This document shows, one piece after another, positions 56,738-59,718 of a stretch of 64,000 nucleotides of DNA. Position 1 is the stretch's first letter. Each line of letters begins with the position of its first letter. Made by a program: the position numbers and the translations under genes. Source of the stretch: a virus. Lineage: Duplodnaviria; Heunggongvirae; Uroviricota; Caudoviricetes. Location: IMG/VR virus record IMGVR_UViG_2585427757_000006. One strand, given 5' to 3'. A model generated the notes under the pieces. That model saw only the letters and a list, made by a program, of their open reading frames with translations, searched no databases and was not told the origin of the DNA.

Positions 56738-56770
56738 AATGATTCCATACATAGTAGGTATGGAATCATT
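56738..56770. promoter_or_regulatory. lox/FRT-like site: perfect 13-bp inverted arms around a 7-bp spacer
   Basis: aatgattccatac atagtag gtatggaatcatt, 99 nt upstream of the integrase ATG in the divergent intergenic region. Confidence 0.55.
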
Positions 56771-56889
56771 GTGGGCCTTTTTTATAAAATCTGTGATTCT
56801 TCTCAGGATAAATTATCTAAACTAAAAATTGTGTTTTGTGTTGGCATCTGCTTGAATAGACGCATGTTTATTCAGATATGGAATAATCA

Positions 56890-57426
56890 GTGAACAACCA
56901 AATTCATTGGGACTACCCATTCTCAGAAGAATTCGGCAGTGGGATGGTACACAGACAATTCACTGTGGGAAGCACTATTTATGCCGTTGGGTTTGAACAA
57001 ATATTGACGATGGATGATTTCACACGTAAGGGAGTTGATATCCTAAATGTACATCCAACATTCCGGTTTCCTCTGAGTGGTGTATGGGGAGTGATTTTTG
57101 ACGAAATTGACCCTGTAGAAATGGATTTCAAAGGATTTCGGCATATCCAACATCAAGGCTTGGCAGGTGGTCAAGTGCTTTTGAATGTTGCAAGTATAAT
57201 CTTTGACCATTATACTGTTTGTAACGCAGGAGCTTATGTCTTCTCCGCCGCAGACGACCATCAGCATTTACGCAGAACTGACTTGGTTGACATTTACTGT
57301 AAGATACTAGGTCTAAATGGAAAACGTAAAAGTAGATTGTTCGCCAATGGTTTTCCTGGATGGGAGGCATACTGTGATGTACCAACAGGAGGAAGAGGCT
57401 ATGTCGTCACGACTGAAAGTTATTAA
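56890..57426 (+). CDS. Hypothetical protein (178 aa, GTG start)
   Basis: Long plus-strand ORF. No motif recognised. Confidence 0.5.
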   Translation: MNNQIHWDYPFSEEFGSGMVHRQFTVGSTIYAVGFEQILTMDDFTRKGVDILNVHPTFRFPLSGVWGVIFDEIDPVEMDFKGFRHIQHQGLAGGQVLLNVASIIFDHYTVCNAGAYVFSAADDHQHLRRTDLVDIYCKILGLNGKRKSRLFANGFPGWEAYCDVPTGGRGYVVTTESY

Positions 57427-57628
57427 TTATTACCCCACCTCTGCAGAACGTTTGAGCCTTGAAATGGGCGAAAGACTACAGAAAGCTGCTGGTCAGGATT
57501 TAAAGAACAAGTTGGGTTCAGGGGAAATTAAACTGATTAACGGTAAATATGTAGGTGAAAGCCTGAAAGTTAATAGCACCTCTATGCTAAAAGCGCGGTT
57601 GCGTAAAGCGTATATCCCCGCTAAATGA
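57401..57628 (+). CDS. Hypothetical protein (75 aa from MSSRLKVINYY)
   Basis: ATG at 57401 preceded by ggaggaagagg. Overlaps the upstream ORF by 26 nt. A terminator follows. Confidence 0.4.
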   Translation: MSSRLKVINYYPTSAERLSLEMGERLQKAAGQDLKNKLGSGEIKLINGKYVGESLKVNSTSMLKARLRKAYIPAK

Positions 57629-57650
57629 AAAGGCCTATATGGGCCTTTTC
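57627..57650. terminator. Bidirectional terminator between convergent genes
   Basis: gaaaaggcc tatatg ggccttttc. Confidence 0.7.
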
Positions 57651-57654
57651 ATTT

Positions 57655-57900
57655 TTATAGTGTACTCACCAGCGCCGCAAATTCCGTATACCCCCCAATA
57701 TGCTCTCCATGTATGAATATCTGAGGTATGGTATCCACTGGTTTACCAACCAGGTTGCTCAACGTTTCTTTGTTGATCCCCGCAGATGTAATATCTATAT
57801 ACTCATAATCACCGTAGCCATGTCCCTTTAGTTGCTTCGCCAACTCGACCGCACGTTTGCAGTATGAGCAGTTATCTCGTCCGTAGATAGTGATCGTCAT
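57655..57900 (-). CDS. Glutaredoxin-like redoxin (81 aa)
   Basis: Active site CSYC at residues 11-14, a TIPQIFI..G..IGG motif, and small size. Plausible electron donor for NrdAB. Confidence 0.8.
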   Translation of the reverse strand: MTITIYGRDNCSYCKRAVELAKQLKGHGYGDYEYIDITSAGINKETLSNLVGKPVDTIPQIFIHGEHIGGYTEFAALVSTL

Positions 57901-58073
57901 AACTTAACAAATACCTTTATAAATATTGATTCGAACATATCAGACTATACTACAAACAGATTTTTTTGATAAGTATGTAGTAACTTATTGATTGACTAGT
58001 AAACAATTGAAGTGATTACGACAATAGATTACAGTAAGGATTGCCTTGAAATGTACATTTTATAGAGGTTTTA

Positions 58074-58982
58074 ATGATTGGTAAGTTGTCTGATTCTTTG
58101 ATTGAAAATAAATACAACGAATTTAGAGAAGAAATATCTTTACTTTTTGACTATTTAAATCAGATAAATGATACAACAAAGAAAAATATAAAACGTCTTC
58201 TTAAAGAAGTGGAGTATGCACAAAATCCAGATACTATTATTAATATTAATGAAACTATTAAGATTAAGTGTGGCACAACGTTAGCTCGCCATTTATGTTC
58301 AAACCCATATACAGGTTCAACATTAGAGATAGGTAACAGCGCCATTGATTTAGAAGAAAAGATAAGATTGTGTAATACTTTGAAAAATAAACAATATCAG
58401 TGGGTTATTACTGAAGCCTATGAGTTACTGGAAGACTATATTGAGGCAATATATGTCTATACTGTATGTGTTCGAAATGATTTATGGTCCTCAAGTGATT
58501 TTGGTAAGGTTGAAGATGATGAAATTGGGAAAAGGGAAGTTTATTACAGATTATTAAAAGCAAAAAGTAACCCATCGAAAAAAATAACTAAAATTTTCAG
58601 AAATAAAATACCTGGCTTCAAAGAGATAGAAACAAACAACAAGATTGGCAAAAACTATCGCTTTAACATCAAGCTAATTGAACTACTAAGACATACAATA
58701 GTACACAATAGTGGACGATTCAATGATACAGAAAAATTTATAAATAAGGTTTTAGATGAATCTGAAATAAACGGTAAGAAAAGAGTTATTGGAGAAAGAG
58801 CTGTTAGAAGTTACATTACTAAAGTGCAAGAAGATGATATTGTGATGCTCTTAGAAAGACCATCTGAAATTTTAGGTTCTTTTGGTGGGTATTTTAACAG
58901 AGCAAAATTTTTACTAAGTGATATTTTAGAATACTCACTAATCATTAAAGAAGAACTAAAATCATATCTAGGCAATCATTAA
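58074..58982 (+). CDS. Low-GC hypothetical protein with a HEPN-type Rx4H motif (302 aa)
   Basis: SD agagg at 58064-58068. LIELLRHTIVHNSGRF gives R-HTIV-H. Composition (by eye below ~30% GC) is much lower than the neighbours. Confidence 0.6.
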   Translation: MIGKLSDSLIENKYNEFREEISLLFDYLNQINDTTKKNIKRLLKEVEYAQNPDTIININETIKIKCGTTLARHLCSNPYTGSTLEIGNSAIDLEEKIRLCNTLKNKQYQWVITEAYELLEDYIEAIYVYTVCVRNDLWSSSDFGKVEDDEIGKREVYYRLLKAKSNPSKKITKIFRNKIPGFKEIETNNKIGKNYRFNIKLIELLRHTIVHNSGRFNDTEKFINKVLDESEINGKKRVIGERAVRSYITKVQEDDIVMLLERPSEILGSFGGYFNRAKFLLSDILEYSLIIKEELKSYLGNH

Positions 58983-58986
58983 CAAA

Positions 58987-59013
58987 AAAGGGGCCGAAGC
59001 CCCTTTGGATTTT
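58987..59013 (+). terminator. Strong intrinsic terminator after the HEPN-motif gene
   Basis: aaaggggc cgaa gccccttt, then ggatttt. Confidence 0.8.
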
Positions 59014-59160: not shown

Positions 59161-59247
59161 TGGCGGAGAGTAATGGAATCGAACCATCATCGCTTGCGCA
59201 ATGGGACGGTTTTCAAGACCGCTTGAGCACCATGCTCCCTACTCTCC
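59161..59247 (-). tRNA. tRNA-Ser (anticodon UGA), class II, CCA encoded
   Basis: Hand fold: acceptor ggagagt/actctcc, anticodon arm gcggt-cttgaaa-accgt, variable arm with a gcaa tetraloop, T arm gatgg-ttcgatt-ccatt. Confidence 0.85.
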
Positions 59248-59249
59248 GG

Positions 59250-59399
59250 CCGTTGTGGTGGCCGGTACTGAATCTCCGGCATACGGTGCAGCCAATTAGG
59301 ACTACGGACGATCACCGCTCGCGAAAGGGAAGATTTGCGGCCGCATTTCCCTAACATCCAAGAAAGCTATCGCATCAGTCTGCGAATCCACCACAACGG
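59250..59399. other. 150-nt segment closed by a 12-bp perfect stem between tRNA-Ser and tRNA-Thr (candidate small RNA)
   Basis: ccgttgtggtgg 59250-59261 pairs with ccaccacaacgg 59388-59399. Internal hairpin agggaa..gcggccgc..ttccct. Confidence 0.3.
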
Positions 59400-59471
59400 T
59401 AAGATCACTACCTTTCGACCAGTCATTGTGCACATGAACGACGATTAACCGTAATGATCTTATCGTTGTAT

Positions 59472-59547
59472 TGGTGCCGGTTAGCGGACTCGAACCGCTG
59501 ACATCCTGCTTACAAGGCAGGCGCTCTACCAACTGAGCTAAACCGGC
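59472..59547 (-). tRNA. tRNA-Thr (anticodon UGU), CCA encoded
   Basis: Canonical cloverleaf: gccggtt ta gctc agttggta gagc g cctgc cttgtaa gcagg atgtc agcgg ttcgagt ccgct aaccggc a cca. Confidence 0.92.
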
Positions 59548-59551
59548 AATT

Positions 59552-59638
59552 TGGTGGGGAGTGATGGAGTCGAACCACCCGAGTCGCAATGACAGTAGAT
59601 TTACAGTCTACCCCGCTGCCCCTACGGACTAACTCCCC
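59552..59638 (-). tRNA. tRNA-Tyr (anticodon GUA), class II, CCA encoded
   Basis: Acceptor ggggagt/actcccc, anticodon arm gtaga-ctgtaaa-tctac, variable stem gtc/gac, T arm ggtgg-ttcgact-ccatc. The D arm is slightly non-canonical. Confidence 0.8.
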
Positions 59639-59643
59639 TAAAT

Positions 59644-59718
59644 TGGCGATGGTGGGTGGATTCGAACCACCGACCAGTTGGTTAACAGCCAACTGCTCTA
59701 CCGCTGAGCTACACCATC
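59644..59718 (-). tRNA. tRNA-Asn (anticodon GUU), CCA encoded
   Basis: Canonical cloverleaf: gatggtg ta gctc agcggta gagc a gttgg ctgttaa ccaac tggtc ggtgg ttcgaat ccacc caccatc g cca. Confidence 0.92.

Follow-up and report, generated by a model that had tools for sequence, protein, structure and literature searches.

A predicted HEPN-fold ribonuclease from a large, previously unmodelled protein family in a recombination hotspot of an SSU5/pHCM2-like phage-plasmid

The stretch of DNA analysed here (64,000 nucleotides of IMG/VR record IMGVR_UViG_2585427757_000006, in the following called the window) comes from a phage-plasmid of E. coli that is SSU5/pHCM2-like. A previous reading of the window, which was made by a model from the sequence alone (the original prediction), had pointed to an AT-rich orphan gene with the Rx4H motif of HEPN ribonucleases (RNases). 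The product of this gene, here called the HEPN gene, is very likely a HEPN-fold protein with an intact RNase-type active site, as judged from its conserved residues and from a structure model. It belongs to a large family of proteins that was previously unmodelled. With regard to its role we slightly favour a stand-alone endoribonuclease which would be held inactive and, once triggered by a phage, would act in abortive infection; this part is argued from sequence, model and analogy.

The protein family and its predicted fold

The motif LIELLRHTIVHNSGRF is present in the protein, and R206-x4-H211 is its sole Rx4-6H site. The original prediction had called a single motif thin evidence, and that caution was justified, as Rx4H occurs in 19% of composition-preserving shuffles of the protein and R[NDH]x3H in 3%. 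The motif gains its significance from being invariant across a whole family and not from the single sequence.

At E<=1e-3, an exhaustive HMMER search with a seven-sequence profile returned 450 clusters, which had been formed at 50% identity; 139 of them reach E<=1e-30. A word-indexed search had given 8 clusters, almost all of them from E. coli contigs of about 100 kb; the assumption of a tiny family restricted to E. coli was overturned by the exhaustive search. Almost all members have a length of 280-330 amino acids (aa). As this size is constant and no fused domain is found, the members of the family are stand-alone proteins.

For the conservation analysis 135 diverse members were aligned, with a mean column identity of 24%. 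E117, R206 and H211 are the only invariant columns of this alignment. The original prediction had proposed to check whether the motif residues are conserved in homologs, and R206 as well as H211 passed this check in all 135 members. Conservation of at least 90% is seen for N105, Q107, W110, Y127, W138, E186, N189, H207, V210 and G214. Position 207, which follows the motif R, is occupied by H in 131 of the 135 sequences and by N in the other four. The family signature reads KNKQYQWLLxEAYExFEDF ... ExxN ... LIExLR[H/N]xIVHxxG. Conservation peaks at residues 93-133 and 195-216, while the N-terminal 92 and the C-terminal 85 residues are far more variable. The corresponding parts of the gene are:

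58074..58349, + strand: variable N-terminal part, residues 1-92, with a helix (2-50) and a beta-hairpin (69-91); entropy of 3.0-3.1 bits and most of the gaps
58350..58472, + strand: first conserved block (residues 93-133), a single long helix that carries KNKQYQWLLxEAYExFEDF; entropy of 2.0 bits; E117 at 58422-58424
58473..58655, + strand: insert of short helices, residues 134-194, with the near-invariant W138, E186 and N189
58656..58721, + strand: conserved block 2, residues 195-216, with R206-H207-T-I-V-H211-N-x-G; R206 at 58689-58691 and H211 at 58704-58706

Residues 1-92 might represent a region for regulation or sensing and for oligomerisation.

HEPN domains are described as four-helix bundles, in which helix 2 and helix 3 are often separated by an insert (PMC3710099). 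Their Rx4-6H motif is located at the C-terminal end of core helix 3 and runs into the next loop; the residue after the R is N, D or H, and an acidic residue, typically in the context E-x3-[K/R], is found upstream in helix 2 (PMC3710099). AlphaFold provided with seven sequences gave a model with a predicted local distance difference test score (pLDDT) of 78, and AlphaFold2 (AF2) with 135 sequences gave a pLDDT of 94 and a predicted template modelling score (pTM) of 0.90. The model begins with helix 2-50 and the beta-hairpin 69-91 and continues with the E117-bearing helix 93-133, an insert of 60 residues made up of short helices, helix 195-212, short elements and a final helix 276-300. R206..H211 is located at the C-terminal end of helix 195-212 in the pLDDT-94 model and is followed by the loop 213-218. 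The insert of residues 134-194 corresponds to the one typically found between helices 2 and 3 of HEPN domains. The HEPN assignment of the original prediction is thus supported by the invariant R206, H211 and E117, by H or N after the R and by the position of the motif at a helix end. Of six testable HEPN criteria, four are found in the alignment of 135 and the AF2 model (among them the conserved Rx4-6H, the N/D/H after the R and the helix-end position), the one on the acidic residue is found in part, and the one on a sequence-profile match failed.

A structure search against 48,164 chains gave a HEPN protein as top match and at least 16 chains of the HEPN superfamily among the top 60. The HEPN matches were aligned over about 85-95% of the length of each chain. 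They comprise 4nqf, 5yep, 2hsb, 3o10, 7ae2, 1ufb, 1wwp, 1ylm and 1wol, and further chains matched were Csm6 (6tug), AbiA (8oz7), 6nlt, 2pbe, 3jyy, 3brj and probably 3c8g. The first model of lower quality had already retrieved eight of the listed HEPN chains. Foldseek, one of the fold checks proposed together with the original prediction, was run with the first model against the PDB; its result was dominated by long-helix artefacts, with no match at E<=0.001. Sequence searches of the PDB with the 7- and 135-sequence profiles gave chance matches only (uS19, SNAP-25, CmlS).

It could be argued that the resemblance to HEPN is spurious, and that a generic helical bundle carries the E, R and H of an unrelated active or binding site. 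We regard this as quite improbable. Against it stand the at least 16 HEPN chains in the top 60 with a HEPN protein as top match. Several features also fit the published definition, each on its own: the spacing of the motif, the polar residue after the R, the location where a helix ends, the insert, and the acidic residue upstream, apart from its E-x3-D context. Even less probable is a HEPN-like helical protein without nuclease activity, which would, for example, bind nucleotides or other ligands or act as a regulator, as do MtlR or the domains by which nucleotidyltransferases bind their substrate. Loss of the Rx4-6H motif is characteristic of HEPN lineages that are not catalytic (PMC3710099), whereas in the present family R, H and the acidic residue are the sole residues without any exchange.

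The window protein itself has no match in Pfam, NCBIfam or PADLOC, and the scan of defence libraries that had been suggested by the original prediction remained without a PADLOC model for this protein. In PHROGs it matches only its own family of unknown function, 35492; a second match in the N-terminal part to an 'anti-restriction nuclease' family (E 0.0027) is negligible. No Pfam, NCBIfam or PADLOC model covers the family of 450 clusters, and annotation pipelines built on those libraries miss it.

The gene and its place in the phage-plasmid

Many non-mobilizable plasmids of E. coli with a size of about 109-120 kb, and also 'Escherichia phage CMS-2020a', share 97-99.5% identity with the queried stretch. 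The features at the locus are:

56770..58983, no strand assigned: variable (hotspot) segment, bordered by an integrase gene on one side and by the tRNA operon on the other, with two + strand open reading frames (ORFs) of unknown function, grxA and the HEPN gene
57901..58073, + strand: intergenic leader of 173 nucleotides (nt), AT-rich, common to the divergent grxA (from sequence reading)
58063-58067, + strand: Shine-Dalgarno sequence AGAGG, 6 nt ahead of the ATG of the HEPN gene
58074..58982 (stop codon included), + strand: HEPN gene with ATG start, 302 aa, 35 kDa, isoelectric point 8.1, soluble, stand-alone
58987-59006, both strands: bidirectional intrinsic-terminator hairpin with an 8-bp stem, a GC-rich core and a 4-nt loop
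59161-59718, - strand: cluster of tRNA-Ser(tga), Thr(tgt), Tyr(gta) and Asn(gtt); 178 nt between the stop of the ORF and tRNA-Ser

The HEPN gene has grxA (57655..57900, - strand) on one side and the minus-strand tRNA cluster on the other. As stated by the original prediction, the ORF is real, lies on the + strand opposite to the backbone and is AT-rich. Its GC content is 0.292 (0.224 at third codon positions, GC3) compared to 0.46 for the whole window. In sliding windows the values are 0.28-0.31 over the gene and about 0.40-0.47 in the flanks.

Two signals had been assigned to the gene as its own. This is true for the Shine-Dalgarno sequence with its spacing of 6 nt. The strong terminator does exist as a hairpin, which begins 5 nt past the stop codon, but it is bidirectional, with energies of -14.9 kcal/mol on the - strand versus -13.2 kcal/mol on the + strand. 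Because its U-tract is better on the - strand and a consensus scan called a terminator on that strand only, the hairpin is primarily the terminator of the convergent tRNA operon, and the HEPN gene shares it. An own promoter of the HEPN gene was considered and is unconfirmed: upstream of the ORF no + strand sigma-70 promoter passed the promoter scan, which called sites on the - strand only, and the best + strand candidate found by eye is only an 8/12 match (TTGAAG-17-TACAGT). The leader and the locus contain no meaningful small ORF, tandem repeat or Rfam match.

The HEPN gene is an accessory cassette in a recombination hotspot, because nearly identical backbones carry other genes or divergent alleles at this position. 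The flanking backbone is 96-98% identical in phage Cyrano and plasmid CP059946, yet the segment from about 56,770 to 58,983 is wholly replaced in both. Cyrano has a 116-aa minus-strand ORF after grxA and lacks the HEPN gene, and CP059946 has two small minus-strand ORFs, with a YafO-family toxin further upstream. In a third relative (L060) with a backbone of 96-98% identity, the segment itself is 78% identical and the protein encoded by its HEPN gene 56%. Distant SSU5-like elements from Klebsiella and Citrobacter, with a backbone of about 72% nucleotide identity, have alleles of 38-43% identity at the same position. The hotspot changes by allele replacement or fast divergence. Together with the low GC content, this behaviour supports the earlier view that the gene is a horizontally acquired accessory gene.

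In PLSDB (searched by tblastn) 58 plasmids contain a family member, namely 29 from Escherichia, 27 from Klebsiella and one each from Citrobacter and Pseudomonas. All 58 copies are annotated as 'hypothetical protein'. The identities of the alleles fall into discrete classes of >=99, 56-59, 43 and 38-42%. Most SSU5-like plasmids are without the HEPN gene. According to a survey of clinical phage-plasmids, transposons have inserted close to the tRNA loci in SSU5-like elements, and known defence systems occur sporadically in these elements (bioRxiv 10.1101/2025.09.12.675607).

Further observations concern the hotspot segment. Its two overlapping + strand ORFs of 178 aa and 103 aa (56890-57628) have no Pfam match, and relatives with 98% identity elsewhere carry other sequence in their place; the corresponding region of CP059946 is occupied by the YafO-family toxin together with a hypothetical gene. 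These ORFs may be additional accessory or defence-related cargo. The glutaredoxin gene grxA (57655-57900, - strand) is only about 79-81% identical between backbones which are 97-98% identical on both sides, and therefore a conserved function sits within a mosaic, recombining segment. Truncated copies of the HEPN gene occur as well. Proteins of 172-173 aa are encoded on two E. coli contigs of about 101-108 kb (P0005 and P0006), and in the Klebsiella plasmids H86-H89 the protein is shortened N-terminally, with matches spanning only residues 67-299. These shortened copies indicate an occasional decay of the cassette.

The original prediction had also connected the gene with the adjacent tRNAs, either as a combination acquired together or with the tRNAs as a supply for self-immunity or repair. 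We did not find this connection. The variable segment ends at about 58983, and from there onward the region with tRNA-Ser is conserved backbone, 96.6% identical in Cyrano, which keeps its Ser, Thr and Asn tRNAs though the HEPN gene is absent. A tRNA is located within 8 kb in only 5 of 50 homologous loci, and these are single host tRNAs, plausibly integration sites of islands, or an ordinary host tRNA operon. For these reasons the gene and the cluster were neither acquired together nor do they travel together; the tRNA cluster is a feature of the backbone, neither co-inherited with the HEPN gene nor a trait of the family. The proposed supply function is left unsupported by the same findings, as relatives without the gene keep the cluster. 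One could still imagine an anticodon nuclease whose targets overlap the adjacent Ser(UGA), Thr(UGU), Tyr(GUA) and Asn(GUU), with cleavage-resistant copies on the phage-plasmid that would keep its own translation running while host and competitor starve. To this idea, which is built on analogy, we assign a very small probability. If true, defence and self-immunity would form a functional pair, though the two parts are inherited separately.

The tRNA sets differ among close relatives; the window contains Ser, Thr, Tyr and Asn (59161-59718), and Cyrano contains Ser, Thr and Asn without Tyr (L003, 4705-4952). The tRNA-Ser is 90-96% identical to that of P7, D6 and rV5-like phages, and this common type is a further point against a link with the HEPN gene. 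Between tRNA-Ser and tRNA-Thr an unannotated spacer of 224 nt is located (59248-59471, RNA of the - strand), which is closed by a 12-bp stem, CCGUUGUGGUGG...CCACCACAACGG. Its minimum free energy is -76.5 kcal/mol (z -2.3), and it has no match in Rfam or by ARAGORN. The spacer is 100% conserved in many E. coli SSU5-like plasmids and missing in Cyrano, where the gap between Ser and Thr is 8 nt. Possible readings of the spacer are a structured RNA, the remnant of a tRNA or a scar left by an insertion.

Distribution and neighbouring genes in other genomes

The genomic context was studied at the 50 loci mentioned above, which were retrieved with a 25-sequence subset of the alignment from contigs representing one genome per species. 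They come from Gamma-, Beta-, Alpha-, Epsilon- and Deltaproteobacteria, Bacteroidota, Spirochaetes, Nitrospira and Aminicenantes. When the four neighbours on each side were compared all against all at 48 loci, no recurrent partner gene emerged, and the sole repeats among the neighbours came from two near-identical strains of Lonsdalea. The following Pfam families recur among 150 genes within three positions of the homologs: resolvase (4), phage integrase (3), AAA/AbiEii-type ATPases, FRG, vWA and Bro-N. Strong PADLOC matches among the neighbours are PD-T7-1 (2), PD-T7-5 (2), PDC-S15 (2), GajA, a type IIG restriction-modification (R-M) enzyme and PD-Lambda-1. The raw total of 277 matched PADLOC models is inflated, as a single type IIG enzyme accounts for 62 of them, and was not used as a measure of enrichment. 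When ten large neighbours were scanned singly, one type IIG R-M enzyme, one Lamassu-like LmuB and three weak PADLOC matches were obtained. In IMG/VR 21 contigs carry family members, and prophage settings are among them; on the dozen contigs outside the SSU5-like group the homolog is surrounded by integrases, an invertase, endolysin, tail genes, an anti-repressor and a methyltransferase. In prophages and genomic islands the family is a single-gene cassette that is mobile. Defence genes are often, though not in every case, located beside it, and the enrichment is a qualitative one.

Two single loci are described separately. In a metagenome-assembled genome of the Campylobacterales (L027, 164-3420) the stop of a type IIG R-M gene (PADLOC E 6e-189) overlaps the start of the homolog by 4 nt, which suggests that the homolog is co-transcribed with the R-M enzyme in that lineage. 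At L005, 6141-7493, in Lonsdalea quercina, an FRG-domain protein that matches the PADLOC candidate system PDC-S15 (E 3e-93) directly adjoins the closest chromosomal homolog.

The HEPN gene could also encode the toxin of an addiction or toxin-antitoxin (TA) module which stabilises the phage-plasmid. The antitoxin would then have escaped recognition as a small protein, as an antisense RNA or in the ORFs at 56890-57628. We consider such a module unlikely. No gene recurs beside the family members at the 48 loci, and neither MNT nor any other nucleotidyltransferase is among the recurrent neighbour families. A hidden antitoxin (a small ORF, a repeat RNA as in type III TA systems, a known small RNA) was sought at the locus, and none was found. 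In L060 the ORFs at 56890-57628 are replaced and the allele of the HEPN gene is still present. Finally, the many SSU5-like plasmids without the gene demonstrate that it is dispensable for maintenance.

Phages encode RNases for host shut-off. The HEPN gene is phage-borne and adjoins a tRNA operon, and the family occurs on viral contigs, and so its product might serve the lytic cycle of the phage-plasmid or counter-defence, either in shutting off host or competitor or in processing phage transcripts or the precursor of the adjacent tRNAs. This is rather improbable, for most of the homologs found are chromosomal genes of bacteria from many phyla and lie in islands that also contain integrases and defence genes. 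In addition, relatives lacking the gene retain an intact tRNA operon, and most homologs have no tRNA nearby. The moron-like layout of the gene (opposite strand, own Shine-Dalgarno sequence, terminator) and its low GC content point to an accessory function and not to a core lytic one.

Known defence systems and a proposed role

The closest functional analogue of the present family, likened by its published description, is HepS (HEPN Solo defence element, STM14_3211) from the Gifsy-1 prophage of Salmonella Typhimurium 14028 (PMC13043305). HepS has no partner gene, is non-toxic on overexpression and forms an inactive tetramer, which is opened by the tail-tip protein J of siphoviruses; HepS then cleaves Thr, Ile and Ser tRNAs (PMC13043305). 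The Gifsy-1 record of strain LT2, which we examined for HepS, contains no ORF with the HepS motif positions.

ApeA (HEPN_Apea, PF18739) resembles the role proposed here, as it is a stand-alone HEPN defence protein that stays inactive until a signal of infection and cuts host tRNA anticodon loops. It is activated by deoxydinucleotides and cleaves in the anticodon loops (bioRxiv 10.64898/2026.01.26.701840), and R-M or defence loci are a frequent location of ApeA (PMC3710099). However, only one of the 135 family members touches the HEPN_Apea model, and its E of 0.022 is not significant. The oligomers of ApeA are large and doughnut-shaped and contain a ligand pocket, whereas the present family is known from sequence and a monomer model.

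The other HEPN groups are more distant. The minimal HEPN toxins (HI0074/1jog, SO_3166/5yep, 7ae2; DUF86/HEPN) have about 130 aa and are always paired with an MNT antitoxin gene. In contrast, the present proteins have about 300 aa with extra elements, no conserved neighbour and no Pfam match to HEPN or DUF86. An MNT antitoxin is neither among the recurrent Pfam families of the 150 flanking genes nor adjacent in the window. The Pfam and PADLOC models of the lactococcal-type Abi proteins (AbiD/AbiF = Abi_2, AbiJ, AbiU2, AbiV, and AbiA with its C-terminal HEPN) match none of the 135 members significantly. PrrC and RloC share the HEPN Rx4-6H active site and defend against phages by cleavage of tRNA, but their N-terminal part is an ABC-type ATPase domain, and PrrC is encoded within an operon for type I R-M (PMC3710099). 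Such an ATPase domain is absent from the present protein, as is an R-M operon from the window. PrrC was reported in some phage-plasmids of the SSU5 group (bioRxiv 10.1101/2025.09.12.675607). In the searchable literature no publication was found that ties HEPN proteins to SSU5-like phage-plasmids or that describes the present family. By sequence and analogy it would be a new HEPN family of the solo abortive-infection nuclease kind (HepS, ApeA, AbiD/F-type), which profile scans set apart from the modelled HEPN families.

We read the protein as a solo HEPN RNase because of the invariant set of E, R and H, the HEPN-like predicted fold, the lack of a partner gene and the mobile hotspot context. A role in defence or exclusion is probable from this context and from the analogous systems. 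According to this proposal the protein would homo-oligomerise, and two Rx4H motifs would build a composite, metal-independent RNase site. In the lysogen the nuclease would be kept inactive, and therefore no antitoxin would be needed. A cue from an infecting competitor phage would turn it on, and the active enzyme would cut cellular RNA, most plausibly tRNA anticodon loops and otherwise mRNA or rRNA. Translation would halt, the infection would abort, and the clonal population with the phage-plasmid would be protected. The divergent N- and C-terminal parts would carry the specificity for the trigger, which would explain why alleles as divergent as 100, 56-59, 43 and 38-42% occupy one site in related backbones. 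Variable termini and divergent alleles would both fit a role that determines specificity in an arms race.

Several points weigh against this interpretation. The invariant E117 in helix 93-133 is found in the context E117-x3-D121 and not in the usual E-x3-[KR]. Neither the window protein nor the 135 members have a significant match to a HEPN profile of Pfam, NCBIfam or PADLOC; all matches are at noise level, namely to DUF3644 (window protein E 2.9; three members E>=0.0065), to HEPN_Apea in the one member mentioned above and to Csx1/Csm6 (two members, E>=0.0033). The defence neighbourhood is partial, as five of the ten large neighbours scanned singly have no PADLOC match. Finally, analogy is the source of the proposed RNA target, oligomeric state and trigger alike.

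Clinical E. coli, Klebsiella, Shigella and Salmonella commonly carry SSU5/pHCM2-like phage-plasmids, most of whose accessory genes are annotated as 'hypothetical'. One of these genes now gains a concrete and testable identity, together with a sizeable family in prophages and genomic islands. Conceptually this is unsurprising, as HEPN nucleases in hotspots of mobile elements are an established theme. If defence is confirmed, the protein would be another solo HEPN effector beside HepS and ApeA, and the alleles at this one locus would offer a natural series for mapping trigger specificity. It would also help to explain the competition between phage-plasmids and phages, which bears on phage therapy of such lysogens.

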